A stretch of DNA of 18,069 bases, taken from IMG/VR virus record IMGVR_UViG_2675903352_000005. One strand, given 5' to 3'. Origin of the DNA: a virus. Taxonomy: Duplodnaviria; Heunggongvirae; Uroviricota; Caudoviricetes. Shown in pieces: positions 412 through 18,000 of this stretch (position 1 is the first letter of the stretch; every line of letters starts with the position of its first letter). The position numbers and the translations under genes are program-made. Under the pieces are notes generated by a model. It saw nothing but the letters and a program-made list of their open reading frames with translations. It was not told the origin of the DNA and searched no databases.

Positions 412-1097
412 ACAACCAGTATTTACAGTTTGTGCGTGAGCAGCTCATTATCGCCACTGCTGATTTGAGTGGGGCAACAAAAGGTCAGCTTGAGGCCTGG
501 CAGGAGAATGCCATATTTGATACAGGGCGTTACAGGCGTAAAAAAATCCGGTACCGTGATGAAGTGACCGGAAAAATGATAACGCGGGATAATCCACCAA
601 TCCCGGGGAAACAATCGCTGGCGAAGGTGACGTCAATTCCTCTGGTAAGTCAGGTTGAGTTTTCGACATCCTCATGGCGACGGGCTGTTCTGTCTCTTGA
701 AGAACATCATAAAGCCTGGTTGCTGTGGTGTTGCAGCGGCAGCATTTGCTGGGAACACCAGATTGCGATAACACAGTGGGCGTGGAATGGATTTAACGCG
801 CAATCTGGTACCAGAAAAATTGCGGAGAAAACACGGGAACGCCTGAAAAAATTAATCTGGCTGGCGGCGCAGGATGTCAGGGGATGGGTAACCGGGCATG
901 AGAACTACCAGCGACAGGAACTTGCCAGGCTGTGTGGAATTAAACCTGACAACTGGAGCCATAATTATGCGAACTACTGGCGTGAGATGTGCGATCTTTT
1001 TAAGGCTCTGGACACTGAATCTTTGATTTGCACTGTGAAAATGAGATCTAAACAAAAAGCGACCTTTTTGCGACGAGATGTTGCAAAAATCAATTAA
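408..1097 (+). CDS. Putative late-gene antiterminator (Q-like), about 229 aa
   Basis: The ORF track starts at GTG 402; ATG 408 overlaps the rusA stop (ATGA), so I prefer 408. It lies immediately upstream of a sigma70-like promoter plus terminator and the lysis cassette, which is the canonical Q position. The protein is not similar to lambda Q as I recall it, so family assignment rests on position and size only. Confidence 0.55.
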   Translation: MNNQYLQFVREQLIIATADLSGATKGQLEAWQENAIFDTGRYRRKKIRYRDEVTGKMITRDNPPIPGKQSLAKVTSIPLVSQVEFSTSSWRRAVLSLEEHHKAWLLWCCSGSICWEHQIAITQWAWNGFNAQSGTRKIAEKTRERLKKLIWLAAQDVRGWVTGHENYQRQELARLCGIKPDNWSHNYANYWREMCDLFKALDTESLICTVKMRSKQKATFLRRDVAKIN

Positions 1098-1109
1098 ATC
1101 GCGTATATT
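1081..1109 (+). promoter_or_regulatory. Candidate late promoter (pR'-like): TTGCAA, 17-nt spacer, TATATT
   Basis: Read directly: -35 TTGCAA at 1081-1086 and -10 TATATT at 1104-1109, overlapping the 3' end of the Q-like gene and about 55 nt upstream of a strong terminator. This matches the lambda pR'/qut/tR' layout. Confidence 0.35.
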
Positions 1110-1161
1110 TCGTGTAAATTTGATATTTTGCCGATTTTGTACGCGATGGCAAAGTAAGCAA

Positions 1162-1188
1162 GGCCCGCCGCTGAGCGGGTTTTTTTAT
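1162..1188 (+). terminator. Rho-independent terminator (tR'-like)
   Basis: GC-rich hairpin CCCGC-(cgctga)-GCGGG at about 1164-1179, followed by a run of seven T. Confidence 0.6.
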
Positions 1189-1308: not shown

Positions 1309-1506
1309 ATGCTAAAACAGCAGGATATGACCGAAACTGCCAGAGTGGTGTTTAATGAATTAAGCGTCACCGAACCGGCGACCGTCGGGGAAATTGCGCA
1401 GAATACTTACCTTTCACGCGAACGTTGCCAGTTAATACTGACCCAGCTTGTTATGGCGGGTGTGGCTGATTATCAGTTCGGTTGTTACAGACGCCTTCCT
1501 CAGTGA
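1309..1506 (+). CDS. Small hypothetical protein (65 aa), possible winged-helix DNA-binding protein (FaeA/PapI-like pattern)
   Basis: ORF preceded by AAAGGGAAAAGG. The segment TVGEIAQNTYLSRERCQLILTQLVMAGV resembles the recognition-helix region of small FaeA/PapI-type regulators as I recall them. Short length makes this a tentative call. Confidence 0.4.
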   Translation: MLKQQDMTETARVVFNELSVTEPATVGEIAQNTYLSRERCQLILTQLVMAGVADYQFGCYRRLPQ

Positions 1507-1656: not shown

Positions 1657-2709
1657 ATGGCTAATACTGTAAAAATATCCAGTTGTGAGTTAGTCAACGC
1701 TGATTGCCTGGAATTTATCCAGACCTTACCGGAAAACTCTGTCGATCTGATAGTCACAGACCCGCCATACTTTAAAGTGAAGCCCGAGAGCTGGGATAAC
1801 CAGTGGAAGGGGGACGATGATTACCTGAAATGGCTGGACCAGTGTCTGGCGCAGTTCTGGCGGGTACTGAAGCCCGCCGGAAGTCTTTACCTGTTCTGTG
1901 GTCATCGCCTGGCATCTGACACCGAAATTATGATGCGTGAACGCTTTAATGTGCTGAATCACATTATCTGGGCGAAGCCGTCAGGACGCTGGAACAGGTG
2001 CAACAAGGAAAGCCTGCGGGCGTATTTCCCGGCAACAGAGCGCATTCTGTTTGCCGAACATTATCAGGGGCCATATCGCGGCAAAAGTGACGGCTATGCG
2101 GCAAAAGAAAGTCAACTCAAACAGCACATAATGGCACCGCTGATTTCGTATTTCAGGGATGCTCGTGCCGAACTGGGTATAACGGCAAAACAAATTGCCG
2201 AAGCCACAGGTAAGAAAAATATGGTTTCCCACTAGTTTGGTGCCAGTCAGTGGCAGTTGCCGAATGAGGCTGACTATCGGAAGTTACAGGCACTGTTTTC
2301 CCGTATAGCGGCAGAGAAGTTTCAGGAACAACAACTGGAACAACCACACCACCAGCTGGTGGCATCTTATGATTCACTGAATCGCAAATATTCTGAATTG
2401 CTGGATGAGTTTAAATCTCTCCGGCGCTATTTCTCCGTATCAGTCTCCGTGCCTTATACCGATGTCTGGACGCATAAGCCCGTTCAGTTCTACCCGGGTA
2501 AACATCCGTGCGAGAAACCGGCGGATATGCTCCGGCAAATAATCAATGCCAGTAGTCGACCTGGTAATCTGGTCGCTGATTTCTTTATGGGATCCGGTTC
2601 CACAATAAAAGCAGCAATGGCGCTGGGGCGTCGGGCGTTAGGTGTTGAACTTGAGTCAGAGCGGTTTAATCAGACGGTGAAAGAGGTAAGTGAACTGGTG
2701 GGGAAATAA
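1657..2709 (+). pseudogene. DNA amino-methyltransferase (N6-adenine or N4-cytosine), split by an in-frame TAG at 2233-2235
   Basis: Two ORFs in the same frame (1657-2235 and 2257-2709) are separated only by one amber codon. The N-terminal part carries the catalytic motif DPPY (VTDPPYF); the C-terminal part carries the AdoMet-binding motif FxGxG (FFMGSGST). Both are needed in one polypeptide, so the intact gene would encode about 350 aa. Confidence 0.75.
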
Positions 2710-2785: not shown

Positions 2786-3121
2786 ATGCCTCATAACCCA
2801 AATACCTGGCCGGACTGGCTGGAGTTGTTTCAGAGCTGGTGGCGTGGAGACACACCGCTGGGTGCAGTGATTATGTCGATCGTTATGGCTGGTTTGCGCA
2901 TCGCCTATTTTGGCGGTGGTGGTGGCTGGAAGCGAAAAACGCTCGAGATTTTGCTCTGTGGCGCTCTGACGCTGACCTTTGCATCCGCTCTTGAGTATGT
3001 CGGATGGCCTAAATCACTTTCTGTTGCCATTGGTGGCGGCGTGGGGCTGATCGGTGTCGATGCTATTCGTGGGGCTGCAATGCGAGTAATTGGTAACAAG
3101 TTTGGTGGCTCTAAGGAGTAA
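2786..3121 (+). CDS. Holin, three predicted transmembrane segments (111 aa)
   Basis: ATG 2786 follows GAGGTGAGAG. Three hydrophobic stretches (LGAVIMSIVMAGLRIAY, LEILLCGALTLTFASALEYVGW, LSVAIGGGVGLIGVDAI) and a charged C-terminus; it sits directly upstream of the endolysin. The longer track ORF from GTG 2690 would run through the terminator hairpin, so I reject that start. Confidence 0.8.
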   Translation: MPHNPNTWPDWLELFQSWWRGDTPLGAVIMSIVMAGLRIAYFGGGGGWKRKTLEILLCGALTLTFASALEYVGWPKSLSVAIGGGVGLIGVDAIRGAAMRVIGNKFGGSKE

Positions 3122-3124
3122 TTT

Positions 3125-3601
3125 ATGCAGGTACTAAATTCCCAGCGTAAAGCTTTCCTCGATATGTTGGCGTGGTCAGAAGGAACGGATAACGGGCGAC
3201 AGCCAACCCGCAATCACGGCTACGACGTTATTGTAGGTGGTGAGCTATTCACGGATTACTCCGATCATCCTCGCAAACTTGTCACGCTAAACCCGCAACT
3301 TAAATCAACCGCAGCTGGACGTTACCAGCTTCTTTCCCGTTGGTGGGATGCCTACCGCAAGCAGCTTGGCCTGAAAGACTTCTCTCCGAAAAGCCAGGAC
3401 GCTGTTGCACTGCAGCAGATTAAAGAGCGTGGCGCTTTACCAATGATTGATCGCGGTGATATTCGTCAGGCTATCGACCGTTGCAGCAATATCTGGGCTT
3501 CACTACCGGGCGCTGGTTATGGTCAGTTCGAGCATAAAGTTGGCAACCTGATTGCAAAATTCAAAGAAGCAGGCGGAACGGTCAGAGAGATTGAGGTATG
3601 A
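3125..3601 (+). CDS. R: Endolysin, lambda R-type lytic transglycosylase (158 aa)
   Basis: Near-identical over most of its length to lambda R as I recall it ([22 protein letters not shown]...[35 protein letters not shown]). Confidence 0.95.
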
Positions 3602-4035
3602 GCAGAGTCACCGCGATTATCTCCGCTCTGGTTATTTGTATCATCGCCTGCCTGTCATGGGCTGTTAATCATTACCGTGATAACGCCATTACCTATAAAG
3701 AACAGCGCGATAAAGCCACGTACATCATCGCTGACATGCAGAAGCGTCAACATGATGTAGCAGAACTCGATGCCAGATACACAAAGGAGCTTGCTGATGC
3801 TAACGCGACTATCGAAAGTCTCCGTGCTGATATTTCTGCTGGGCGTAAGCGCCTGCAAGTCGCCGCCACCTGTGCAAAGTCAACGACCGGAGCCAGCAGC
3901 ATGGGCGATGGAGAAAGTCCAAGACTTACAGCAGATGCTGAACTCAATTATTACCGTCTCCGAAGTGGAATCGACAGGATAACCGCGCAGGTTAACTATC
4001 TGCAGGAGTACATCAGGACGCAATGCCTGAATTAA
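3598..4035 (+). CDS. Rz: Rz inner-membrane spanin (145 aa)
   Basis: N-terminus [33 protein letters not shown] matches lambda Rz. Start overlaps the R stop (ATGA). Coiled-coil central region. Confidence 0.9.
3797..3982 (+). CDS. Rz1: Rz1 outer-membrane lipoprotein spanin, embedded in Rz in the +1 frame (61 aa)
   Basis: ORF lies entirely inside Rz. AAGGAG sits 8 nt upstream of ATG 3797. Signal peptide with lipobox (LLGVSAC) followed by a proline-rich mature part ([13 protein letters not shown]), as in lambda Rz1. The track start at 3770 is an alternative. Confidence 0.8.
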
Positions 4036-4076: not shown

Positions 4077-4388
4077 ATGAAAATTTATATTGCCGGACCA
4101 ATGACGGGATATGAGAATTTTAATCGTGACGCCTTTAATAAAGAGGCTGAGCGTTTGTCACGTCATGGTCATTCGGTCCTGAATCCAGCCACTTTACCCA
4201 ATGGCCTGACGCAATGTGAATACATGGATATTTGCTTTGCAATGCTTCGTTCTGCTGATGCTATTTTGATGCTTCCTGGCTGGAAAGCGTCAGCTGGAGC
4301 AACTGCTGAGTATTATTACGCATACAAGATGGAGATGCCGGTATTCACTACGCTGAATTACCCGCCAGCTTGTTCCTCTGTAGCATAA
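4077..4388 (+). CDS. Hypothetical protein (103 aa), nucleoside 2-deoxyribosyltransferase-like (DUF4406-type) N-terminus
   Basis: N-terminus MKIYIAGPMTG and the overall pattern resemble the small nucleoside 2-deoxyribosyltransferase-like family. Located just after the lysis cassette, where lambda carries bor. Family assignment is from memory only. Confidence 0.5.
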   Translation: MKIYIAGPMTGYENFNRDAFNKEAERLSRHGHSVLNPATLPNGLTQCEYMDICFAMLRSADAILMLPGWKASAGATAEYYYAYKMEMPVFTTLNYPPACSSVA

Positions 4389-4489: not shown

Positions 4490-4939
4490 ATGCAAGAAGA
4501 AGCAAAGAAAATTCTTGTTGATTTATTGAAGAAGGCCAGCGATGGAATTGATTCCGCCATTGCATTCAGTCAGGCTCAGATTCCGGATGTTGTTCATCAG
4601 TTGCTGATATGGAATATGGTTAATAGCCTGATTAAAACATTAATAGCGATTTCAACAATCCCGCTGGTTTTCTGGTTTATGAAGAAACAGTACCAAAAAG
4701 TTGAAATTGGTAAGTTCGATGATGAAGGATGGTCATGGGATAAGGGAAAGCCTAAATACAAACCTACTCTGATTTGGGAAAGTAACGGTGAGATTAGTTT
4801 TCTTATCTTACCATTAGCAGCAGTTTTTGTTATGTGGGTAAGTTTTATTATTGCTGTAGTAACCAATATGACATGGTTAAAAATCTGGCTGGCACCTAAG
4901 TTATATCTAATCGAATACGCAGCATCACTAATTAAATAG
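4490..4939 (+). CDS. Hypothetical membrane protein (149 aa), AT-rich cargo gene
   Basis: AGGA sits 9 nt upstream of the ATG. Hydrophobic segments (LLIWNMVNSLIKTLIAISTIPLVFWFM, ISFLILPLAAVFVMWVSFIIAVVT, WLKIWLAPKLYLI). Base composition is clearly more AT-rich than the flanking phage genes. Followed by a hairpin. Confidence 0.55.
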   Translation: MQEEAKKILVDLLKKASDGIDSAIAFSQAQIPDVVHQLLIWNMVNSLIKTLIAISTIPLVFWFMKKQYQKVEIGKFDDEGWSWDKGKPKYKPTLIWESNGEISFLILPLAAVFVMWVSFIIAVVTNMTWLKIWLAPKLYLIEYAASLIK

Positions 4940-5280: not shown

Positions 5281-5301
5281 CACGGGGCGGGAGCGTCGCG
5301 G
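5281..5301. other. Candidate cos site (cosN-like), putative 12-nt cohesive end GGGCGGGAGCGT at 5285-5296
   Basis: CACGGGGCGGGAGCGTCGCGG closely resembles lambda cosN (ACGGGGCGGCGACCTCGCGGG) as I recall it. It lies about 196 bp upstream of the small-terminase start, as in lambda (about 190 bp), and is followed by an AT-rich cosB-like region. Confidence 0.4.
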
Positions 5302-5480
5302 AAAAAGGCTAGTTTTTGCATTTCCATGGCGGCGGCAGCATGTTTAGTAATTTATTGATAATTAAAAGTTATTTCTCTTTTCACCTGTACAATATTTTTT
5401 TCTCCCTGTCATTAGACCAGTTTGCAATTAATTGAAATATATAAATAAACCTGATTTTCACCTGCCAGATGGAGTTGCTT

Positions 5481-6008
5481 ATGTCAAATGTGAGCGGGAT
5501 CGGTGATGCTTATTACTGGAGTGTTTTTAAAATCGCCGAGGCCTTTGGGCTTCACCGGGACACAGTAAAAAAACGGCTCCTCGCGGCCAACACTCCTGTG
5601 GCTGCGACTGTCAGGGGGAACCCCGTTTACGCCCTGCAGCATGTCGGGCCCGCCCTGTTTAGTGTGAAGCATGAGGCAGCAGACTCTGTTCATGATCCAT
5701 CCCGTATGGAGCCGAAAGAGAGAAAGGACTGGTACCAGTCTGAAAATGAAAGGATCAAGCTGGAAAAGGAGCAGCGAAAACTCATCCCAGTTGATGAAGT
5801 AGTCATCGTCTATTCGTCCATGAGAAAGGCTGTCGTCCAGGTTCTGGAGACAATTCCGGATGTTCTTGAACGCGATTGCGCCCTGACTCCTCAGGCCGTC
5901 GGCGTTGTACAGCAGGCCATTGATGACCTGCGATACACTCTTCAGGAAAAATCCTACGAGGCTTGTGCTGCTGAATTAATTCCTGATGAGGAAGGAGAGA
6001 GTCTCTAG
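5481..6008 (+). CDS. Terminase small subunit, Nu1-like (175 aa)
   Basis: GGAG sits 7 nt upstream of ATG 5481; the track start at 5469 has no ribosome-binding site. N-terminal helix-turn-helix region (YYWSVFKIAEAFGLHRDTVKKRL), acidic C-terminus, immediately upstream of the large terminase. Confidence 0.8.
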   Translation: MSNVSGIGDAYYWSVFKIAEAFGLHRDTVKKRLLAANTPVAATVRGNPVYALQHVGPALFSVKHEAADSVHDPSRMEPKERKDWYQSENERIKLEKEQRKLIPVDEVVIVYSSMRKAVVQVLETIPDVLERDCALTPQAVGVVQQAIDDLRYTLQEKSYEACAAELIPDEEGESL

Positions 6009-6016
6009 GAGGAATA

Positions 6017-8116
6017 ATGGGTTTTTCATCAGCCCGAAATTTGGGAAGGGACATATCGGCAGGATTTTCCCCACCACGTCGCATGCCGATTTCGGAGGCT
6101 GTTAAAAAATTCATGCGTGTTCCCAAGGGGGCTGGTAACTCGGTGCCATGGGATCCTGAACTGACACCCTACATCATTGAGCCCATGAACTGCCTGGCAT
6201 CGCGTGAATACGATGCGGTGATTTTTGTTGGTCCTGCGCGAACAGGGAAGACCATTGGTCTGATCGATGGATGGATTGTCTATACCATCGTTTGCGATCC
6301 TTCGGACATGCTCGTTGTGCAGATGACCGAAGATAAGGCCCGCGAGCATTCTAAAAAGCGCCTCGACAGAACGTTCAGAAGCAGTGCGGCGGTAAAGAAA
6401 AGAATGAGTCCACGTCGTAACGACAATAATGTTCATGATAAGACGTTCAGGGATGGCTCGTTCCTTAAAATTGGTTGGCCCTCGGTCAACATTATGTCGT
6501 CGTCGGATTACCGGTTTGTCGCCTTAACCGATTACGACCGTTTTCCGGAGAATATCGACAGCGAGGGTGATGGTTTCTCCCTGGCCTCAAAACGTACCAC
6601 CACATTTATGTCCGCCGGGATGACTCTGGTGGAGAGCTCGCCGGGACGTGACATCTGCGACAGCAAATGGCGACGTAAGTCGCCTCATGAAGCGCCACCG
6701 ACGACTGGTATTCTTTCCCTTTACAATCGTGGTGACCGCCGCCGCTGGTACTGGCCATGTCCGCACTGCGGTGAATATTTTCAGCCAGCCATGGATGCCA
6801 TGACCGGCTACCGTAATGAACCGGATCCCTTTAAAGCCAGTGAGGCGGCGTATCTACTTTGCCCGCACTGCAGCGGCATTATCACTGCGGAGAAAAAGCG
6901 TGAGCTCAATAGTGCAGGAGTCTGGTTGCGTGAAGGTCAGGTCATTGATCGTAACGGCAACGTTTCCGGTGAACCGCGCCGCTCCCGTATCGCCAGTTTC
7001 TGGATGGAAGGGCCAGCTGCTGCGTATCAGACCTGGGCGCAACTGGTTTACAAATTACTGACTGCAGAACAGGAATACGAGACAACCGGAAGTGAAGAAA
7101 CACTCAAGACGGTTATCAATACCGACTGGGGATTACCTTATCTTCCTCGTGCCAGCATGGAGCAACGAAAAAGTGAATTGCTTGAGCAGCGGGCAGAGCC
7201 AGTTCCTTCCCGCAGTGTGCCGGATGGCGTTAATTTCCTTGTGGCGACAGTGGATGTGCAGGCGGGACGTCATCGCCGTTTTGTGGTTCAGGTAACGGGC
7301 TATGGCAGCCGTGGCGAACGCTGGATTATTGATCGTTACAACATCACGCAGTCATTGCGCGGTGACAGCGACGGGGAGAGCCAGCGAATTGATCCGGCCA
7401 GCTATCCGGAAGACTGGGATGTCCTGCTGACGGATGTTTTTCATAAAAGCTGGCCGCTGGCCTCCGATCCTTCTCAACAAATGCGACTGATGGCAATGGC
7501 GGTGGACTCCGGCGGTGAAGACGGGGTCACTGATAATGCCTATAAATTCTGGCGTCGTTGCCGTCGTGATGGCCTTGGTAAACGTATTTACCTGTTTAAG
7601 GGCGACAGCATCCGGCGCGCAAAACTGATCAGCCGTACATTCCCTGATAACACCGGACGAACGGGCCGACGGGCGCAGGCCGCAGGTGATGTGCCGCTCT
7701 GGCTTCTTCAGACGGATGCCCTGAAAGACCGGGTGAATAACGCGTTATGGCGTGACTCGCCAGGTCCCGGCTATGTGCATTTCCCTGACTGGCTGGGGAG
7801 CTGGTTTTACGACGAACTGACGTATGAAGAGCGGAGCAGTGACGGGAAATGGAGTAAACCGGGTCGCGGTGCCAACGAAGCTTTTGACCTGATGGTGTAT
7901 GCCGAGGCTCTGGTCATTCTGCATGGATACGAAAAGATCCGCTGGCCGGATGCACCGGAGTGGGCGAGCCGGGAAACCTGGCTGGAGTGTGTCCCGGACA
8001 GTACCGAACCGTCACCCTCACCGGAACCGGTATCCACGCCTGTTAAAAAACAAAAACGGAAGAAAACAGTAACTGACGATGTTAACCCCTGGCTGACTTC
8101 CGGAGGATGGTTATGA
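6017..8116 (+). CDS. Terminase large subunit, lambda gpA family (699 aa)
   Basis: AGGAGG precedes the ATG. Walker A-like GPARTGKT, paired CPHCG/CPHCS motifs as in lambda gpA, and a C-terminal nuclease-like region. Size and position fit. Confidence 0.9.
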   Translation: MGFSSARNLGRDISAGFSPPRRMPISEAVKKFMRVPKGAGNSVPWDPELTPYIIEPMNCLASREYDAVIFVGPARTGKTIGLIDGWIVYTIVCDPSDMLVVQMTEDKAREHSKKRLDRTFRSSAAVKKRMSPRRNDNNVHDKTFRDGSFLKIGWPSVNIMSSSDYRFVALTDYDRFPENIDSEGDGFSLASKRTTTFMSAGMTLVESSPGRDICDSKWRRKSPHEAPPTTGILSLYNRGDRRRWYWPCPHCGEYFQPAMDAMTGYRNEPDPFKASEAAYLLCPHCSGIITAEKKRELNSAGVWLREGQVIDRNGNVSGEPRRSRIASFWMEGPAAAYQTWAQLVYKLLTAEQEYETTGSEETLKTVINTDWGLPYLPRASMEQRKSELLEQRAEPVPSRSVPDGVNFLVATVDVQAGRHRRFVVQVTGYGSRGERWIIDRYNITQSLRGDSDGESQRIDPASYPEDWDVLLTDVFHKSWPLASDPSQQMRLMAMAVDSGGEDGVTDNAYKFWRRCRRDGLGKRIYLFKGDSIRRAKLISRTFPDNTGRTGRRAQAAGDVPLWLLQTDALKDRVNNALWRDSPGPGYVHFPDWLGSWFYDELTYEERSSDGKWSKPGRGANEAFDLMVYAEALVILHGYEKIRWPDAPEWASRETWLECVPDSTEPSPSPEPVSTPVKKQKRKKTVTDDVNPWLTSGGWL

Positions 8117-8325
8117 ATCAGAATGATATTGAAGCCATGATTCAGCGTTATACGGAAGCTGAAATGGCGGTGCTGGACGGAAAATCCGTCACTTTTAATG
8201 GTCAGCAGATGACCATGGAAAACTTATCTGAGATCCGGCAGGGGCGGCAGGAGTGGGAGCGCCGCCTTGCGGCTCTGATTACACGACGACGGGGGCATCC
8301 CGGGTACCGGCTGGCGAGGTTCTGA
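8113..8325 (+). CDS. W: Head-tail joining protein, gpW-like (70 aa)
   Basis: ATG 8113 overlaps the terminase stop (ATGA), with GGAGG 6 nt upstream. The C-terminal RRRGHPGYRLARF resembles the lambda W C-terminus (QRRRGPAGFYV). Lies between terminase and portal, as in lambda. Confidence 0.6.
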   Translation: MNQNDIEAMIQRYTEAEMAVLDGKSVTFNGQQMTMENLSEIRQGRQEWERRLAALITRRRGHPGYRLARF

Positions 8326-9833
8326 TGGCAATTCTTGATGATGTGATTGGCGTTTTTTCACCAGGATGGAAAGCGGCAAGGCTGCGTTCCCGTGCGGTGA
8401 TCCAGGCTTATGAGGCCGTAAAAACGACGCGGACACACAAAGCCCGACGGGAGAACCGAACTGCCGACCAGTTAAGCCAGTACGGGGCCGTGTCGTTACG
8501 TGAGCAGGCCCGTTACCTTGATAACAACCACGATCTGGTCATTGGTGTATTTGACAAGCTGGAAGAACGGGTGGTGGGGAAAAACGGGATTATTGTCGAG
8601 CCACATCCGGTATTACGCAATGGGGCCATTGCCCGTGATCTGGCAGCGGAGATACGCACCCGATGGAGTGAATGGTCTGTCAGTCCGGAAGTCACCGGGC
8701 AGTTTACCCGTCCGATGCTGGAACGTCTGATGCTGCGTACCTGGCTGCGCGATGGTGAGGTGTTTGCCCAGATGGTTTCCGGGCGCATAAACAGCCTGAC
8801 GCCTTCTGCCGGTGTTCATTTCTGGCTGGAGGCGCTCGAGCCGGACTTTATTCCCATGACCAGTGATGAGAGCAACAGGCTGAATCAGGGCGTGTTTGTT
8901 GATGACTGGGGGCGTCCCGAAAAATATCTGGTGTATAAAAGCCGTCCCGTATCCGGACGGCAGATGGAAACCAAAGAAGTGGATGCAGAGCGAATGCTGC
9001 ATCTTAAATTTGTTCGCCGTCTGCACCAGATGCGCGGGACGTCTTTATTGTCCGGTGTGCTGATCCGCCTCAGCGCCCTGAAAGAGTATGAAGATTCTGA
9101 GCTGACTGCAGCAAGGATCGCCGCTGCTCTGGGGATGTACATCCGGAAAGGCGACGGACAGAGCTATGAAACGGATGGTAATGACAGCAAGGAGAATGAA
9201 CGCGAGCTTACCATTCAGCCAGGCATTATTTACGACGATCTGAAACCCGGCGAAGAAATCGGAATGGTGAAGTCGGATCGTCCCAATCCTAACCTTGAAA
9301 CTTTTCGTAATGGTCAGTTGCGTGCCGTGGCGGCGGGCAGTCGTCTGAGTTTTTCCAGTACGGCACGCAACTATAACGGCACTTACAGCGCCCAGCGTCA
9401 GGAACTGGTTGAGTCTACTGATGGCTACCTGATCCTGCAGGACTGGTTTATTGGTGCCGTCACCCGCCCGATGTATCGTGCCTGGCTGAAACAGGCTGTG
9501 GCATCCGGTGTTATCAGGCTACCCCGCGATCTTGACCGTTCTTCACTGTATACCGCGGTGTATTCCGGACCAGTGATGCCGTGGATTGACCCTGTTAAGG
9601 AGGCTGAGGCCTGGAAAATCCAGATTCGTGGTGGAGCGGCGACAGAATCAGACTGGGTACGTGCTGGTGGTCGTAATCCGGATGATGTCAAACGTCGGCG
9701 CAAGGCCGAAATTGATGAAAACCGCAAGCTGGATCTGGTATTTGATACCGATCCGGCCAGTGATAAAGGAGGCAGCAGTGCCGCAACGAAACGACAGGAG
9801 CCGCAGCACACCGACGACCAGTCCGAAGAATAA
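8325..9833 (+). CDS. Portal protein (502 aa)
   Basis: ATG 8325 overlaps the W stop (TGATG); the track extension from 8253 lacks a plausible start context. Size and position between W and the protease/capsid gene are typical of lambda-family portals. Confidence 0.85.
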   Translation: MAILDDVIGVFSPGWKAARLRSRAVIQAYEAVKTTRTHKARRENRTADQLSQYGAVSLREQARYLDNNHDLVIGVFDKLEERVVGKNGIIVEPHPVLRNGAIARDLAAEIRTRWSEWSVSPEVTGQFTRPMLERLMLRTWLRDGEVFAQMVSGRINSLTPSAGVHFWLEALEPDFIPMTSDESNRLNQGVFVDDWGRPEKYLVYKSRPVSGRQMETKEVDAERMLHLKFVRRLHQMRGTSLLSGVLIRLSALKEYEDSELTAARIAAALGMYIRKGDGQSYETDGNDSKENERELTIQPGIIYDDLKPGEEIGMVKSDRPNPNLETFRNGQLRAVAAGSRLSFSSTARNYNGTYSAQRQELVESTDGYLILQDWFIGAVTRPMYRAWLKQAVASGVIRLPRDLDRSSLYTAVYSGPVMPWIDPVKEAEAWKIQIRGGAATESDWVRAGGRNPDDVKRRRKAEIDENRKLDLVFDTDPASDKGGSSAATKRQEPQHTDDQSEE

Positions 9834-9846
9834 TTCCTGGTTCAGG

Positions 9847-11805
9847 ATGCAGGCTGGTCACCAGAGTGACGCGGATATTTATATTTATGACGAGATTGGT
9901 TTCTGGGGTGTTACAGCGAAGCAGTTTATCAGTGATCTGAATGCACTGGGCGATATCACCCACATTAATCTTCATATTAATTCACCGGGTGGCGATGTCT
10001 TTGAAGGCATCGCCATTTTTAATGCACTGAAAACACATGGTGCGTCCATTACCGTTTATGTCGACGGTGTGGCGGCGTCAATGGCGTCGGTCATTGCGAT
10101 GGTGGGAAACCCGGTCATTATGCCGGAAAACACTTTCATGATGATTCATAAACCATTTGGCTTTACGGGCGGTGATGCGGAGGACATGCGCACCTATGCC
10201 GACCTGCTCGATAAAGTTGAGGCGGTTCTGTTACCCGCTTATGCACAGAAAACCGGGAAAACCACCGATGAAATTGCTGCCATGCTGGCGGATGAGACCT
10301 GGATGTCCGGTGCCGAATGTCTGGCACATGGATTTGCTGATCAGGTAACGCCAGCCGTTAAGGCAATGGCATGTATTCAGTCAAAACGTACAGAGGAATT
10401 TAAAAAGATGCCGGAATCCATTCGAAACATGATTACTCCGCCACGCAACAGTGCTCCACGCGTACAGGATGATGAACCTGCAGCCTCCCGGACGCCAGTG
10501 CAGGCAGCAGCACCCGTGGTGGATGAAAACAGTATCCGTGCGCAGGTACTGGCAGAGCAAAAAGCGCGTGTAAACGGTATTAATGATCTGTTTGCCATGT
10601 TTGGCGGGCGTTATCAGACGCTGCAGGCTCAGTGTCTTGCCGATCCTGAATGTTCGCTGGAGCAGGCCCGCGAAAAGCTGTTGAACGAGATGGGGCGCGA
10701 GTCCACGCCATCCAATAAAAATACCCCGGCTCATATTTATGCCGGTAACGGTAATTTTGTGGGGGACGGGATCCGCCAGGCGCTGATGGCGCGTGCCGGA
10801 TTTGAAAAAACCGAACGTGATAATGTCTACAACGGGATGACCCTGCGTGAATATGCCCGTATGTCACTGACTGAACGGGGTATTGGGGTTTCCAGTTATA
10901 ACCCGATGCAGATGGTCGGTGCGGCGTTCACACACAGTACGTCTGACTTCGGTAATATTCTGCTGGATGTTGCGAACAAAGCCATTCTGCAGGGCTGGGA
11001 AGATGCCCCTGAAACCTATGAACAGTGGACGCGGAAAGGTCAGTTGTCTGATTTTAAAATTGCCCATCGTGTGGGTATGGGGGGCTTCAGTGCTCTGCGT
11101 CAGGTGCGTGAAGGGGCGGAATATAAATACGTCACCACCGGAGATAAACAGGCCACTATTGCACTGGCGACCTATGGCGAGCTGTTCAGTATCACCCGTC
11201 AGGCCATTATCAATGATGATCTGAATATGCTGACCGATGTCCCGATGAAGCTGGGCCGTGCGGCGAAATCCACTATTGCCGATCTGGTTTATGCCATTCT
11301 GACGTCTAACCCGAAAATCTCCACAGATAATGTAAGTCTGTTCGATAAAGCGAAACATGCAAACGTACTGGAGAGCGCTGCAATGGACGTGGCATCGCTG
11401 GATAAAGCCCGCCAGTTGATGCGCGTTCAGAAAGAGGGGGAGCGTCATCTGAATATTCGTCCTGCGTTCGTACTGGTACCGACGGCGATGGAGTCTGTTG
11501 CTAACCAGGTCATTCGCTCCTCAAGTGTCAAGGGGGCTGACATTAACGCCGGTATTATTAACCCGGTGAAAGATTTTGCGACCGTTATTGCAGAGCCTCG
11601 TCTTGATGATAACAGCCAGACCACCTTCTACCTGGCTGCGTCAAAAGGCTCCGATACGATTGAAGTGGCTTATCTCAACGGTGTGGATACGCCATATATT
11701 GATCAGATGGAGGGCTTCAGTGTGGATGGCGTGACAACGAAAGTGCGTATTGACGCCGGTGTCGCGCCAGTTGATCACCGCGGTCTGGTGAAATGTACGG
11801 CGTAA
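9847..11805 (+). CDS. Prohead protease (ClpP/S14-like), scaffold-like linker and major capsid protein fused in one ORF (about 652 aa)
   Basis: The N-terminal domain has ClpP-like motifs (NSPGGDV, catalytic-Ser context GVAASMASV, His context MIHKP). A charged, Pro/Ala/Gln-rich linker is followed by a roughly 400-aa capsid-like domain. The start is uncertain: ATG 9847 has a weak ribosome-binding site, and in-frame ATGs lie upstream inside the portal gene (e.g. 9715). Confidence 0.8.
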   Translation: MQAGHQSDADIYIYDEIGFWGVTAKQFISDLNALGDITHINLHINSPGGDVFEGIAIFNALKTHGASITVYVDGVAASMASVIAMVGNPVIMPENTFMMIHKPFGFTGGDAEDMRTYADLLDKVEAVLLPAYAQKTGKTTDEIAAMLADETWMSGAECLAHGFADQVTPAVKAMACIQSKRTEEFKKMPESIRNMITPPRNSAPRVQDDEPAASRTPVQAAAPVVDENSIRAQVLAEQKARVNGINDLFAMFGGRYQTLQAQCLADPECSLEQAREKLLNEMGRESTPSNKNTPAHIYAGNGNFVGDGIRQALMARAGFEKTERDNVYNGMTLREYARMSLTERGIGVSSYNPMQMVGAAFTHSTSDFGNILLDVANKAILQGWEDAPETYEQWTRKGQLSDFKIAHRVGMGGFSALRQVREGAEYKYVTTGDKQATIALATYGELFSITRQAIINDDLNMLTDVPMKLGRAAKSTIADLVYAILTSNPKISTDNVSLFDKAKHANVLESAAMDVASLDKARQLMRVQKEGERHLNIRPAFVLVPTAMESVANQVIRSSSVKGADINAGIINPVKDFATVIAEPRLDDNSQTTFYLAASKGSDTIEVAYLNGVDTPYIDQMEGFSVDGVTTKVRIDAGVAPVDHRGLVKCTA

Positions 11806-11828
11806 ACGTCGCAGACAACAACTCTGAT

Positions 11829-11848
11829 GGCCCGTAAGGGCTTTTTTT
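11829..11848 (+). terminator. Weak terminator or attenuator hairpin after the capsid gene
   Basis: Short stem GCCC-(gtaa)-GGGC followed by seven T. A second 7-bp hairpin CAGCCCC-(tgaac)-GGGGCTG at 11860-11878 abuts the ribosome-binding site of the next gene. Confidence 0.4.
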
Positions 11849-11891
11849 GTACCTGAAATCAGCCCCTGAACGGGGCTGTGCGGAGACAGTT

Positions 11892-12215
11892 ATGGCAAAG
11901 AATTTTGTAGAAGAAGGAAAAACGGTGGCGATTGTTGCCAGTGCAGCCATCAGCAGCGGAGATCTGGTGCAGGTGGGTGATGTTTTTGCGGTGGCGCTGA
12001 CCGATATTCCACAGGGTGAAACAGGCGACGGCATGACCGAAGGTGTGTTTATGCTGCCTAAGCTGAAAACGGATGATATGAAAACGGGTAAGAAGGTTTA
12101 TCTGAAGTCTGGAAAAGTTCAGCTGACTAACAGCGGCTCTGATCCGCTGGTCGGGGTTGTCTGGGCAGATGCCGGAACCAGTGCAGAAGAAGTGCCGGTA
12201 AAACTCAATGTCTGA
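11892..12215 (+). CDS. Small head-associated protein (107 aa), possible decoration / DUF2190-like protein
   Basis: GGAG sits 7 nt upstream of ATG 11892; the track start at 11847 is an unsupported extension. Lies directly after the capsid gene, with a Gly/Val-rich beta-type composition. Function inferred from position only. Confidence 0.55.
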   Translation: MAKNFVEEGKTVAIVASAAISSGDLVQVGDVFAVALTDIPQGETGDGMTEGVFMLPKLKTDDMKTGKKVYLKSGKVQLTNSGSDPLVGVVWADAGTSAEEVPVKLNV

Positions 12216-12483
12216 TCCCTTTTCCCGGCTGACAGCGCGTATGGATGCGATCACGGTCAGAAAGATGGGAAAGACAGCCTCGATTAATGATGTCGATATG
12301 ACTGTGATCCCGGGAGAAACACTGGCAGAACTGAATGCTCTGTCCGGACCTGCGGTCTCTCTGGTGGTGTTTTCTTCGGGATACCGCCCACGGCGCGGGG
12401 ATCGCGTTGTTTATGACGGACAACAATGGACGGTCACACGGCATGAACGCTTTAACGGTAAGCCAATGATCTTTATTGAGTAA
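12208..12483 (+). CDS. Head-tail connector / head completion protein (91 aa)
   Basis: ATG overlaps the preceding stop (ATGTCTGA). Size and position between head and tail genes fit small adaptor proteins. Function is inferred from synteny. Confidence 0.55.
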   Translation: MSDPFSRLTARMDAITVRKMGKTASINDVDMTVIPGETLAELNALSGPAVSLVVFSSGYRPRRGDRVVYDGQQWTVTRHERFNGKPMIFIE

Positions 12484-12494
12484 AGAGGTGTGGG

Positions 12495-13085
12495 ATGAAG
12501 GGGCTTGAGAATGCCATCCGCAATCTGAACAGCCTTGATACCCGTATGGTGCCACAGGCCAGCGCATGGGCGATAAACCGTGTGGCACAGAAAGCGGTCT
12601 CGGTTGCCACCCGGCAGGTTGCCGGGAATACCGTTGCGGGAGATAACCAGGTGAAAGGGATCCCCCTGAAACTGGTACGTCAGCGTGTCCGGGTGTTTAA
12701 AGCCAGTCCGTCAGGAAAAATGACGGCCAGGATCCGCGTTAACCGGGGCAATCTGCCCGCCATCAAACTGAACACAACACGGCGGCGTGCTGGTGAAGGA
12801 CTGAGAGTGGGAAAATACTTTTTCCGGGGGGCATTTGTTCAGCAACTGGCGAATGGCCGCTGGCATGTTCTGAGGCGTCTTCCTGAAGCGCGTTTTGCAA
12901 CAGGGCATGACCATCAGGGCAGGCCAAGGAAAAATCGTCTTCCTGTGGAGGTAGTGAAAATCCCGCTGTCCGGACCGCTGACACAGGCATTTGAAGATGC
13001 CCGCGACCGCATCATTGCTGCGGAAATGCCGAAACAACTGGGGTATGCACTGAAACAACAACTGAGATTATGGCTGACCCGATGA
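12495..13085 (+). CDS. Z: Minor tail protein, gpZ-like (196 aa)
   Basis: AGAGGTG precedes the ATG. Basic protein of gpZ size, located immediately upstream of a clear U homologue. Confidence 0.65.
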   Translation: MKGLENAIRNLNSLDTRMVPQASAWAINRVAQKAVSVATRQVAGNTVAGDNQVKGIPLKLVRQRVRVFKASPSGKMTARIRVNRGNLPAIKLNTTRRRAGEGLRVGKYFFRGAFVQQLANGRWHVLRRLPEARFATGHDHQGRPRKNRLPVEVVKIPLSGPLTQAFEDARDRIIAAEMPKQLGYALKQQLRLWLTR

Positions 13086-13483
13086 ACCGACATACACAAA
13101 TCCGCCAGGTCGTACTGGCACGCCTTCGGGAACAGTGTGGAGACAGCGCCACGTTTTTTGACGGGCTTCCGGCATTTATTGATGCGCAGGAACTGCCTGC
13201 CGTGGCGGTGTGGCTGAGTGATGCTCAGTACACCGGAAAAATGACGGATGAAGATGACTGGCAGGCTGTTCTGCATATTGCCGTTTTCATCCGGGCACAG
13301 GCACCGGATTCAGAGCTGGATATGTGGATGGAGAGCACCATTTTCCCGGCTCTGAATGATGTACCGGCACTTTCCGGACTCATTGACACCCTGATCCCAC
13401 TCGGTTTTAACTATCAACGTGATAATGAGATGGCCACCTGGGCGATGGCGGAAATCACGTACCAGATCACGTACACGAATTAA
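13082..13483 (+). CDS. U: Minor tail protein U, tail terminator (133 aa)
   Basis: Strong similarity to lambda U as recalled (ATFFDG.PA..D...FPAVAV.L..A.YTG...D.D.WQA.LHI.VF..AQ.PDSELD.WMES.I.P...D.PALS.LI). ATG 13082 overlaps the Z stop (ATGA); the track start at 13070 is an alternative. Confidence 0.85.
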   Translation: MNRHTQIRQVVLARLREQCGDSATFFDGLPAFIDAQELPAVAVWLSDAQYTGKMTDEDDWQAVLHIAVFIRAQAPDSELDMWMESTIFPALNDVPALSGLIDTLIPLGFNYQRDNEMATWAMAEITYQITYTN

Positions 13484-13493
13484 GGAGGTGGTA

Positions 13494-14237
13494 ATGACCA
13501 CACCAAATCCACTGGCAAAGACGAAAGGTGCGGGGACGACGTTCTGGATGTATACCGGCAACGGCGATGCGTTTGCGAACCCTTTGTCGGACACTGACTG
13601 GCTGCGTCTTGCGATGGTGAAGGATCTGCAACCTGGCGAAATGACCGCTGATGCAGAAGATGACACTTATCTCGATGATGAGGATGCAGACTGGAAAACG
13701 ACAACCCAGGGGCAGAAATCCGTTGGTGATACTTCGGCGACGCTGGCCTGGCGTCCGGGTGACAGCGGGCAGAAAAAACTGGTTCAGTTGTTCGACTCCG
13801 GTGAAGTCTGCGCGTTTCGTATCAAATATCCCAACGGTACTGTTGATGTTTTCCGCGGCTGGCTGAGCTCACTGGGTAAAACCATTGCCTCAAAAGACGT
13901 GATGACCCGCACTGTGAAAATCAGCGGTGTGGGGCGTCCGTATCTGGCAGAGGAAGGCACTGAAACCGTGAGCGTTACCGGGCTGACGGTGGCACCGGCA
14001 TCTGCCAGTGTAAAAGTGGGAGCAACCACCACGCTGACCTTTGCAGTAAAACCTGACGGAGCCAGTGACAAAGCGATCAGTGTGCATTCGACAGATCCAC
14101 AGACTGCCACGGTGACCCTGAACGGGCTTGTGGCCACGGTGAAAGGCGTGAAGCAGGGCAGTGTCAGCATTGTGGGCATGACTTCTGACGGCGATTTTGT
14201 GGCAGTGGCTACGGTGGCTGTCAGCGCCGCAGGTTAA
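13494..14237 (+). CDS. V: Major tail protein V with C-terminal Ig-like domain (247 aa)
   Basis: AAGGAGG sits 5 nt upstream of ATG 13494. Near-collinear similarity to lambda V (KGAGTT.W.Y.G.GD..ANPLSD.DW.RLA.VKDL.PGE.TA...DD.YLDDEDADW...QGQKS.GDTS.TLAW.PG). The C-terminal 90 aa or so is Thr/Val/Ser-rich, like lambda V's Ig-like domain. Confidence 0.9.
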   Translation: MTTPNPLAKTKGAGTTFWMYTGNGDAFANPLSDTDWLRLAMVKDLQPGEMTADAEDDTYLDDEDADWKTTTQGQKSVGDTSATLAWRPGDSGQKKLVQLFDSGEVCAFRIKYPNGTVDVFRGWLSSLGKTIASKDVMTRTVKISGVGRPYLAEEGTETVSVTGLTVAPASASVKVGATTTLTFAVKPDGASDKAISVHSTDPQTATVTLNGLVATVKGVKQGSVSIVGMTSDGDFVAVATVAVSAAG

Positions 14238-14257
14238 CAGGACGATACTCATCATTT

Positions 14258-14281
14258 GCCCCGGTTATCCGGGGCTTTTTT
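14258..14281 (+). terminator. Rho-independent terminator-like hairpin after V
   Basis: 7-bp stem GCCCCGG-(ttat)-CCGGGGC followed by six T, just upstream of the G ribosome-binding site. Probably partial termination that lowers expression of downstream tail genes. Confidence 0.5.
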
Positions 14282-14294
14282 GCAGGTGGAGAAC

Positions 14295-14684
14295 ATGATG
14301 TTTCTGAAACAGGGCACGTTTAATTATGAAAAGCAGTCCGTGGTGCTCAGTGAGCTGTCCGGGCTGCAGAGAATTGAATATCTGGCGTTTGTTCAGCAGC
14401 GAACGGCAAAGTTTGATGCCGAAGAGGGAGAACTGCCGGAGGCTGAACGACAGATTGCTTTTCTGCGGATGGGGATGGATATCAATGCCTGGCTGGTTTC
14501 CCGCTCACTGTGGAATGCGGAACAGTCTCAGGATGTTGAGACGCTTTGCGCATCCGTTATTACAACATGGTCGTATGATGCCCTGGGAGCGGGGGCGGAG
14601 ATGGTTCTGTCGCTGAGCGGTATGGGTGCCATTGAGAATGCCGGGGATCTGGAGCATGAGGTGCTGACGCCGGAAAAGTCCTGA
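14295..14684 (+). CDS. G: Tail assembly chaperone G (129 aa)
   Basis: GGTGGAG precedes ATG 14295. The N-terminus MFLKQGTFNYEKQSVVLSELSGLQRIEYLAF matches lambda G (MFLK...VTLSELSALQRIEHLA). Confidence 0.85.
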   Translation: MMFLKQGTFNYEKQSVVLSELSGLQRIEYLAFVQQRTAKFDAEEGELPEAERQIAFLRMGMDINAWLVSRSLWNAEQSQDVETLCASVITTWSYDALGAGAEMVLSLSGMGAIENAGDLEHEVLTPEKS

Positions 14685-15022
14685 CGCGGGAAATGCAGTT
14701 TGTCATGCGGCTTGCCCGGGAGTTCCGGCGGGCAGACTGGCGGCGGATGCTGTCGGAAATGTCGGCCACTGAGCTTGGTGAGTGGGGCGATTATTTCCGG
14801 ATGCAGAGCTTCAGTGATGTGTGGATGGATGCGCAGTTTGCCTCGCTGAAGGCATTGATCGTGAGAATGGTGTCCGGCAGCAGTGATGCTGCGGTGGCTG
14901 ATTTCAGCCTTTTACCGGAAGAGAACGGGATACCGGAGCGAACGGACGAAGAACTGATGCATCTTGGGGAAGGTATTTCCGGAGGTGTGCGTTATGGACC
15001 AGATAGCCAACCTGGTCATTGA
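14295..15022 (+). CDS. T: Tail assembly chaperone G-T fusion, made by a programmed -1 ribosomal frameshift near 14672-14678
   Basis: The -1 frame is open from 14636 to 15022 and encodes a lambda T-like sequence (LAREF.R.DWR.ML..MS.TE...W..YF...SF.D...D..F..L............D.A..DFSLL.......E.TDEE.M....G...GVRYGP). The only slip-prone heptamer in the overlap is G_GAA_AAG (14672-14678), one nucleotide away from lambda's G_GGA_AAG. Confidence 0.7.
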
Positions 15023-18000
15023 TTTGGGGATTGATGCGGCAGAGTTTAAAAATGAAATTCCCCGTATCAAAAACCTTCTGAATGGTGCAGCCAGCGATGC
15101 AGAACGGTCTTCTGCCCGTATGCAGCGTTTTATGGAGCGTCAGACTCAGGCCGCCCGGCAGACAACGCAGGCGGCGTCTTCGGCTGCAACAGCCGCATCC
15201 GTCCATGCGCAGACGGTGGAGAAGAACGCACAGGCTCATGAACGCATGGCCCGCGAGGTGGAGCAAACCCGCCAGCGTATGGAGGCACTGAGCCAGAAAA
15301 TGCGCGAGGAACAGGCGCAGGCCATGGCTCTGGCGGAGGCTCAGGATAAAGCGGCTGCTGCGTTTTATCGTCAGATTGACAGTGTGAAACAGGCCAGGGC
15401 GGGGCTGCAGGAATTACAGCGTATTCAGCAGCAGATCCGACAGGCCAGAAACAGTGGCGGGATTGGCCAGCAGGATTATCTGGCGCTGATTTCTGAGGTT
15501 ACTGCGAAAACCCGTGTTCTTACACAGGCTGAGGAAGAGGCTACCCGACAGAAAGTGGCGTTTATCCGTCAGCTTAAAGAGCAGGCAACCCGCCAGAATC
15601 TTTCATCTTCTGAGTTGCTTCGTGCTAAGGCAGCCCAGCTGGGGGTAAGCAGTGCTGCAGAAGTGTATATCCGCAAAATGGAGCAGGCAGGAAAAGCCAC
15701 GCATTCGCTGGGTCTGAAAAGTGCAGCAGCCCGCCAGGAGATAGGCGTTCTGATAGGTGAACTGGCCCGCGGCAATTTAGGGGCGCTGAGGGGATCCGGG
15801 ATAACGCTGGCTAACCGTGCCGGATGGATAGACACACTGATGTCACCGAAAGGCATGATGCCAGGAGCGGTTATTGGCGGTATTGCCGCGGCTGTCTATG
15901 GTCTGGGTAAAGCCTGGTATGACGGTCAGAAGGAGGGGGAAGAATTTAACCGCCAGCTGTCGCTGACGGGGCATTATGCCGGAGTCACTGCCGGGCAGCT
16001 GTGGACGCTCAGTCGTGCTATTTCCGGGAATGGTATCACGCAACATGCTGCAGCCGGTGCGCTTGCTCAGGTGGTGGGGAGTGGTGCATTTCGTGGAAAC
16101 GATATCGGTATGGTGGCGAGAGCTGCCGCACAGATGGAGCGATCGGTTGGCCAGTCGGTCAGCGATACCATAAATCAGTTTAAGCGGCTGAAGGATGATC
16201 CTGTAAATGCCGCGAAGTCTCTGGACAATGAGCTGCATTTTCTTACTGCCACTCAGCTTGAGCAGATACGCGTCCTTGGAGAGCAGGGGCGGTCCAGTGA
16301 TGCGGCACGGATAGCCATGTCTGCACTGGCAGAGGAAACCGGTCGGCGTACTGCGGATATTGATAATAACCTCAATGCGCTGGGTAGTACGCTGCAAACC
16401 TTGTCTGACTGGTGGAAGCAGTTCTGGGATGCGGCCATGAATATTGGTCGTGAAGACTCGCTGGATGCGCAGATTGCCACTTTGCAGGAGAAAGTGTCGC
16501 GGGCGAAAAGACTCCCCTGGACGGCATCATCTTCTCAGGTTGAATACGATCAGCAGCGTCTTAACGATCTTCAGGAGAAAAAACGCCAGAAAGATTTGCA
16601 GGATGCAAAAGAGCAGGCAGAGCGGAATTATCAGGAGCAACAGAAACGCCGTAATGCTGAAAATGCTGCACTGAACCGGATGAATGAAACGGAAGCAGCA
16701 CGACATCAGCGTGAAATTGCGCGTATTAATGCCATGCAGTACGCCGATCAGGCTGTCAGGGATGCAGCGATACAACGTGAAAATGAACGTTACGAGAAAG
16801 CCCTGGCATCCGGTAAGAAAAAAACACGCGAAACCCGTAATGATGAGGCCACCCGGTTATTGCTGCAGTACAGTCAGCAACAGGCACAGGTGGAAGGACA
16901 GATTGCTGCTGCAAGACAGTCAGCAGGCATTGCCACTGACAGGATGACAGAAGCGCATAAACAGCTTCTGGCTCTGCAGCAGCGCATCAGCGATCTGGAC
17001 GGGAAAAAACTGACGGCAGATGAAAAGAGTGTGCTGGCCCGTAAAGATGAACTGATTCAGGCACTGACGCTGCTGGATGTAAAACAGCAGGAGCTTCAGA
17101 AACAGACGGCACTCAACGATCTGAAGAAAAAAACAATTCAGCTGACCAGTCAACTGGCTGAAGAAGAGCGCGCTCAGCGTCAGCAACATGACCTGGATAT
17201 CGCCACGGTGGGTATGGGTGATCAGCAGCGGCAGCGATATCAGGTACAACTGAGTCTTCGCCAGAAATACCAGCAACAGCTGGAGCAGTTGAGGCGGGAT
17301 AGTGAGCAGAAAGGGACATATAACACGGATGACTACAGAAAGGCCGAGCAGGCGCTGACGGAGAGCCTGAACCGACAACTGAATGAGAATCGCCGTTACT
17401 GGCAACAGCTTGAAGTTGTGCAGGGTAACTGGAAAAACGGAGTCCTGCGTGCATTTCAGGATTTTACCGTGGATGCAGACAATACGGCAGGAACAGCAGA
17501 ACAGGTGTTCTCGTCAGCCTTCAGCAACATGGGAAATGGCCTGGCAACTTTTGTCACTACCGGCAAACTCAACTTCAAATCCTTCACCTCTTCGGTGCTG
17601 TCAGATATGGCGAAAATTCTGGCGCAGATGGCCATGATGCAGGCGGTGAAGGGGATTGGTTCGGCGTTTGGCTGGGGGAGTGCTGCCGCTGCCAGTGTGA
17701 CGCTCAATGCTGATGGTGGCGTTTATCAGTCGGCTGATTTGAGTCGCTACAGCGGCACGGTGGTTAACCGACCGACGTTTTTTGCTTTTGCAAAAGGCGC
17801 GGGTGTGATGGGGGAAGCGGGACCTGAAGCCATTCTGCCACTGCGCCGTGGTGCTGACGGTAAGCTGGGGGTTGTGGCAAATATTGGTGGTTCAGGTATG
17901 GCGATGTTTGAGCAGAATAACCATGTGGTGATTAACAACGACGGCACGAACGGGCAGATAGGTCCGGCTGCTCTGAAGGCGGTGTATGACATGGCCCGCA

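Follow-up and report, generated by a model that had tools for sequence, protein, structure and literature searches.

The 18,069-nt stretch of phage DNA analyzed here (the window) has, between its Q antiterminator gene and its lysis genes, a DNA methyltransferase gene whose reading frame is interrupted by an amber codon. The question that this locus raises is whether the gene is a recently inactivated copy, is expressed by read-through of the amber codon, encodes two polypeptides that act together, or appears interrupted as a result of an error at one base.

A single in-frame amber codon interrupts a methyltransferase gene

Translation of the plus strand from the ATG at 1657 to the TAA at 2707-2709 gave a single frame (1657-2709) of 350 sense codons with one internal stop, the premature TAG at codon 193 (2233-2235). 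In the read-through translation, DPPY, the catalytic motif IV, occupies residues 35-38 (1759-1770, plus strand), and FMGSG, an instance of the FxGxG of AdoMet-binding motif I, occupies residues 310-314 (2584-2598, plus strand). The one-frame translation agrees with the preliminary description of the locus, according to which DPPY and FxGxG lie in two ORFs of the same frame parted only by the TAG. The sequence upstream of the stop (1657-2232) comprises the N-terminal 192 codons of an M.EcoGII-type methyltransferase, with DPPY and the beginning of the helical middle region, as judged from translation, Pfam, alignment to M.EcoGII and the secondary structure of a homologue model. Translation, Pfam and comparison of alleles identify 2236-2709 as the remainder of the gene, predicted to be untranslated, with 157 sense codons that include FMGSG, followed by the TAA.

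Both parts of the gene match PF01555 (N6_N4_Mtase) with scores above the gathering cut-off of 26.7 bits: the N-terminal 192-aa piece at model positions 1-104 (63.9 bits) and the 157 codons past the TAG at positions 132-220 (82.7 bits). An intact E. coli homologue matches positions 1-220 of the same model unbroken (148.2 bits). Within the 91 bases around the stop, the sole difference from two intact alleles is one base, which makes the codon TAG here and TGG there. The split is real and comes down to a single base; it does not reflect two ORFs that happen to be adjacent.

Tryptophan 193 is invariant among homologues

The preliminary description had left it to alignment to show which residue the TAG replaces. 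Aligned intact homologues have Trp193 (TGG) at this position, and both alignments and k-mer searches indicated that base 2234, an A in the window, is a G in all homologues. All of the 119 aligned homologues (75-96% identity, from many Enterobacteriaceae) have Trp193, as do M.EcoGII and its reconstructed ancestors. The intact homologues are single proteins of 348-352 aa. In E. coli, the EC12 (WP_074448922.1) and 1008S13 alleles are both uninterrupted genes of 350 aa in which codon 193 is TGG, and the EC12 allele has 97.8% nucleotide identity to the copy in the window.

Searches with short sequences spanning the codon gave no second instance of the amber allele. Among viral contigs, a 36-mer with TGG was present in at least 120, and the corresponding 36-mer with TAG had no match. 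The TAG version, the only one searched among metagenome contigs, had no match there either, and a 61-mer centered on the stop had no exact match in the 1012 matching E. coli complete genomes, where the best hit covered 60 of the 61 bases. Since neither the TAG nor the TGG 36-mer matched in the genome-contig collection, that search is uninformative, and the pair of viral-contig searches together with the E. coli 61-mer search constitute the real test. Records of the exact 192-aa product are limited to the contig BBVQ01000073.1 of Escherichia albertii NIAH_Bird_8, from which the window comes, and a Logan assembly (see below). Across the collections searched, the amber allele is private to the NIAH_Bird_8 prophage lineage. 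A 90%-identity cluster of the 192-aa fragment with 671 members was considered as a source of further truncated alleles and set aside, as the members listed are mostly labelled partial and probably are cut at contig ends.

Disruption of the gene elsewhere in the family is sporadic. Whole-gene copies were found at 103 of the 120 viral loci listed; 101 of these 103 are open, and the other two have lesions elsewhere in the gene (a truncated 5´ end in the first, a deletion of 1 bp in the second), giving a background of roughly 2%. Likewise, the gene is in one full-length piece in 93 of 95 phage records, including those of SfV, cdtI, mEp460, phiP27, N15, PY54 and phiKO2. The preliminary description had raised the prospect that the homologues are genuinely two separate polypeptides; these phage records and the listed complete viral copies show single genes instead. 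The sole split copy among the 95 phage records is that of Vibrio phage VP585. Two half-length PHROG families (phrog_6025 and phrog_6952) had suggested that split homologues might be found, a candidate that we rejected given that VP585 stands alone among the phage records, and the VP585 split probably explains these families.

The gene belongs to the M.EcoGII family of beta-class methyltransferases

The read-through protein aligns with M.EcoGII over its full length, with 287 of 349 residues identical and 2 gap positions, corresponding to ~82% identity, an approximate value given that the M.EcoGII reference sequence was machine-read from the PDF supplement of PMC11551740 and probably contains a few reading errors. 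Judged by its sequence, the gene is an M.EcoGII orthologue and belongs to an already characterized, very common type of phage methyltransferase. Members of the M.EcoGII orthologous group are single polypeptides of ~350 aa, which the copy in the window, with TAG at codon 193, does not encode; we thus classify the locus as a pseudogene (nonsense allele) of the M.EcoGII family and not as a functional member.

The layout of the protein is that of the beta class, with motif IV (DPPY) N-terminal, motif I (FxGxG) C-terminal and a variable region between them. All sequence matches to solved structures were to beta-class amino-methyltransferases (M.BceJIV, RsrI, CcrM and MboIIA) and were obtained with both halves (E = 1e-23 to 1e-14). 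Foldseek, run with a model of the 93%-identical homologue P0002, matched MboIIA, M.BceJIV, CcrM and RsrI with probability 1.00. This AlphaFold model was built from a shallow alignment (76-93% identity) and has a mean pLDDT of 64, and it was used for secondary structure and fold class only. This modest-quality model places Trp193 within the helical middle region, in a short helix formed by residues 190-194. Two other residues of the read-through protein are specific to the window, an arginine in place of Gly114 (G114R, 1996-1998, plus strand; Gly in 118 of 120 homologues) and, past the stop and just before motif I, an asparagine in place of Asp304 (D304N, 2566-2568, plus strand; Asp in 111 of 120 homologues); two rare residues are too few for interpretation.

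M.EcoGII itself is a non-specific beta-class N6-adenine methyltransferase encoded by a prophage of E. coli O104:H4 (Murray et al. 2018, PMC5778455). It is silent in the normally growing lysogen, its constitutive expression is deleterious, and the authors propose that it is switched on at prophage excision (PMC5778455). A later review places M.EcoGII with the protective modifications made by temperate phages once they are induced (PMC12707154). The silence of M.EcoGII in lysogens (PMC5778455) suggests that genes of this type are late genes of benefit to the phage rather than lysogenic-conversion genes.

The amber codon is unlikely to be an artefact

The window corresponds to contig BBVQ01000073.1 of assembly GCA_001514805.1. 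A paper citing the accession series BBVQ01000001-167 assigns it to E. albertii NIAH_Bird_8 from Japan, with the bird named as Egretta garzetta, and the strain is one of 26 draft genomes sequenced by Illumina MiSeq and assembled with Platanus (PMC4700944). A single-base difference in a lone draft MiSeq assembly, absent elsewhere in the viral, metagenome and E. coli genome searches, might reflect a true prophage sequence of TGG, with the A at 2234 being a sequencing error or having arisen by mutation in the stock used for sequencing. However, the same base is present, within 1969 identical bases, in an independent Logan assembly of run DRR017191 (100% identity over 1969 bp), and the Logan contig with the TAG allele is reported for three samples. 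The identical Logan assembly argues against an assembler artefact at 2234, though the Logan and GenBank assemblies may share the same reads, such that their agreement excludes assembler error but leaves room for a mutation in the culture or an error in its sequencing. In addition, the site at 2234 is no homopolymer, and consensus errors in Illumina assemblies are rare at non-homopolymer sites. On balance, we consider it very unlikely that the amber codon is an artefact of sequencing or culture.

Translation signals around the stop do not favor read-through or restart

A second alternative, already put forward in the preliminary description, is that the gene is expressed by amber read-through only. 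A host or phage amber-suppressor tRNA, or near-cognate decoding, would then decode the TAG usefully, and full-length enzyme would be made under certain conditions or in small amounts. There are reports of amber suppressors in natural coliform isolates and, on general grounds, little protein might suffice if the enzyme is non-specific and very active. The sense codons also run on in frame to the normal TAA through an undamaged downstream half, but this is equally expected of any recent mutation. TAG is absent from the corresponding position of every homologue (119 proteins, at least 120 viral contigs and 1012 E. coli genomes), which speaks against a conserved recoding site, and ARAGORN detected no tRNA within the 18-kb window. 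Moreover, TAG terminates two other genes of the window, orf149 and the DUF1441 small terminase-like gene. The local context is not leaky either: the base after the premature TAG is U, which in E. coli makes for efficient termination, and the predicted fold of the 88 nt past the stop is no more stable than that of shuffled sequence (z = -0.82), giving no indication of a stimulatory RNA structure. As far as the window and the homologues show, the read-through proposal is not borne out, and we regard it as highly improbable.

It is barely conceivable that an active enzyme forms from the N-terminal fragment and a C-terminal one with a translation start of its own, in the manner of naturally split methyltransferases. 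The break does fall in the helical middle region that separates the two halves of the catalytic domain, and both the half-length families phrog_6025 and phrog_6952 and the VP585 gene annotated as two pieces could be read in this way. However, the protein is a single polypeptide in 93 of the 95 phage records and 101 of the 103 listed complete viral copies, and the residue lost at the break is an invariant Trp of a conserved helix. Nor did a search for restart sites past the stop give a credible one: none of the in-frame start codons near it has a usable Shine-Dalgarno sequence (the first of them, TTG at 2257, reaches -2.8 kcal/mol), and ATG does not occur in frame before codon 291.

The methyltransferase gene has the position of a late-operon gene

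The genes and signals around the methyltransferase are ordered as RusA, Q, a promoter-like site, a GC hairpin with U7, a 65-aa ORF, the methyltransferase, a terminator-like hairpin, holin, endolysin and Rz. The Q antiterminator gene (PF06323, Pfam E = 2.9e-81) occupies 408-1097 on the plus strand. Its end overlaps a sigma-70 promoter-like sequence (TTGCAA-17-TATATT, 1081-1109, plus strand), which was found by a consensus scan and which, being positioned as is lambda pR´, is a putative pR´-like promoter. A GC-rich hairpin followed by seven U (1160-1186, plus strand) was recognized from the sequence and RNA fold, though it was not flagged by the terminator scan, and likely is a tR´-like intrinsic terminator. 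Together, the promoter-like site and the U7 hairpin (1081-1186) resemble a compact pR´/tR´ pair with a short leader RNA of ~70 nt. No Rfam family matched in the window, this stretch included.

The 65-aa ORF (phrog_331 by PHROG match; 1309-1506, plus strand) is a conserved neighbor, found directly 5´ of the methyltransferase gene also in EC12, 1008S13, mEp460 (gp52) and Stx2_95. Its only Pfam matches are sub-threshold ones to winged-helix families (TrmB, E = 0.006; HTH_24, E = 0.07), and the encoded protein might regulate the methyltransferase or act together with it. On the 3´ side, a consensus scan detected a strong hairpin (GGCCACG-TTG-CGTGGCC, 2717-2733) followed by a T-run (2717-2743 in all, plus strand) between the stop codon of the methyltransferase gene and the holin start, which may act as a terminator. 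Genes for a lambda-family holin (2786-3121), an endolysin (3125-3601) and Rz (3598-4035), all on the plus strand, follow, as identified by Pfam and PHROG matches and by the RefSeq annotation of homologous loci.

Given the correspondence to the lambda pR´, tR´ and late operon layout, the methyltransferase gene likely is a Q-dependent late gene, and its placement in a lambdoid prophage suggests that it would be expressed only after prophage induction. The preliminary description had regarded the gene as cargo in the slot where lambdoid phages carry stx. The position after Q and before the lysis genes stands, but the cargo label is imprecise: the 65-aa ORF and the methyltransferase gene form a conserved module, and stx lies downstream of it in Stx2_95, where the order is Q, 65-aa ORF, methylase, three tRNAs, stx2AB, further genes and holin.

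Between Rz and the terminase genes, the window encodes a DUF4406 or nucleoside 2-deoxyribosyltransferase-like protein (4077-4388, plus strand; Pfam E = 3e-33, phrog_355) and the 149-aa protein of orf149 (4490-4939, plus strand; phrog_3054). The closest phage records cover only ~75% of the window. The head and tail region (5285-17990, plus strand), which encodes a ClpP-like protease/major capsid fusion protein, shares ~98% identity with Escherichia phage Tritos and with phage cdtI, which carries cdt-I, and the contig ends one base past the stop codon of the tape-measure gene.

The amber allele most likely is a recent loss-of-function mutation

Considering the locus as a whole, we think it highly probable that it is a recent, lineage-private W193amber loss-of-function allele of an M.EcoGII-type anti-restriction late gene in an E. 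albertii lambdoid prophage. In intact phages, the methyltransferase gene and the small upstream ORF, lying right after Q and its promoter and terminator, would be transcribed only upon Q antitermination following induction, as their position suggests. One G-to-A transition at 2234 has changed the Trp193 codon from TGG to TAG, and translation would end after residue 192, giving a fragment that would keep DPPY and be without both the second half of the catalytic domain and FxGxG. Going by the motif and domain layout of beta-class enzymes, a fragment with neither motif I nor the C-terminal half should not bind AdoMet and should be inactive, and the NIAH_Bird_8 prophage is predicted to have lost methyltransferase activity. 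In lambda, Q-modified RNA polymerase resists terminators, and thus the lysis, head and tail genes should still be expressed, with no polarity expected.

The state of the sequence downstream of the TAG bears on the age of the mutation. Compared with the closest intact alleles, the 157 codons past the stop have 2-4 substitutions (13-17 compared with two more distant alleles) and no further stop or indel. A dN/dS ratio for the downstream half would rest on these 2-4 substitutions, too few to test for relaxed selection. The other late genes of the window, which encode the small terminase-like protein, the gpA-type large terminase, the portal, the ClpP/capsid fusion, tail proteins and the tape measure, all match their counterparts of the E. 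coli EM06-18-14 prophage in length. With neither the downstream half nor the neighboring late genes decayed, the TAG mutation appears to be recent. The first alternative in the preliminary description, a recently inactivated orphan methyltransferase, is upheld by the private G-to-A change at an invariant Trp in a gene that otherwise is nearly unchanged. Most likely, the locus is an ordinary, recently broken copy of a known type of gene.

The methyltransferase gene also is mosaic. Compared with 1008S13, dS is about 0.7 in the first 192 codons and about 0.01 in the last 157, and the contrast is weaker for mEp460 and EM06-18-14, with dS of about 0.12-0.13 in the last 157 codons. This uneven dS along the gene suggests recombination within it.

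We doubt strongly that the amber allele was selected, with the loss being adaptive rather than accidental. Were this so, pervasive m6A might be a liability: leaky late transcription could poison the lysogen, and progeny DNA marked with m6A would be open to m6A-dependent type IV restriction (Mrr-like and winged-helix fusion nucleases) in the hosts that it meets, with residual near-cognate read-through perhaps giving a low, tolerable level of methylation. Adaptive loss is without positive support, as the allele is private and the family background of disruption is only ~2%.

The significance of the locus is small, in that one E. albertii prophage has a presumably dead copy of a common, characterized methyltransferase. 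For annotation, the ORFs at 1657-2235 and 2257-2709 are best treated as one M.EcoGII-family pseudogene. Virions of the NIAH_Bird_8 prophage are predicted to be without broad m6A protection against restriction, and the strain, as a natural knock-out, could serve as a control in studies of the use of M.EcoGII-type enzymes to lambdoid phages.

Comparison with known methyltransferase genes

The enzymes of known structure to which the protein is related (M.BceJIV, M.RsrI, M.MboIIA, CcrM and the EcoP15I Mod subunit) share with it the family PF01555, matches on both halves and the Foldseek agreement, but they are only ~15-21% identical, are sequence-specific and have shorter or different middle regions. 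The gp53/gp54 genes of phage VP585 resemble the locus in form, being a same-family member in two adjacent pieces. However, this homologue is distant (~51% identity), and its recovery by tblastn in two pieces is more suggestive of an indel or frameshift than of an amber codon in frame.

The closest characterized relatives are M.EcoGII and M.EcoGI of the E. coli O104:H4 C227-11 prophages, of which M.EcoGII has ~82% identity to the read-through protein, the same order of DPPY, helical middle region and FxGxG, and a length of 349-350 aa. M.EcoGII is prophage-borne, and the prophage here is lambdoid. The copy described here differs in having TAG in place of Trp193, with an inactive 192-aa fragment as the predicted product, and in being hosted by E. 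albertii, not E. coli. Adenine methylation in any context is a demonstrated feature of M.EcoGII and, by analogy, is only predicted for the intact form of its 82%-identical orthologue.

In sequence and setting, the nearest counterparts are the alleles of EC12, of the phages cdtI, mEp460, SfV and phiP27, and of Stx2 phages, with nucleotide identity of up to 97.8% (for the closest E. coli alleles). As in the window, the gene follows Q and the 65-aa ORF in EC12, 1008S13, mEp460 and Stx2_95, and a lambda-family holin gene lies 3´ of it in EC12 and 1008S13; Stx2_95 differs in having tRNAs and stx2AB between the methyltransferase and holin genes. What sets the NIAH_Bird_8 copy apart from the EC12, cdtI, mEp460, SfV, phiP27 and Stx2-phage alleles is that all of these are open genes of 350-352 aa with TGG at codon 193.
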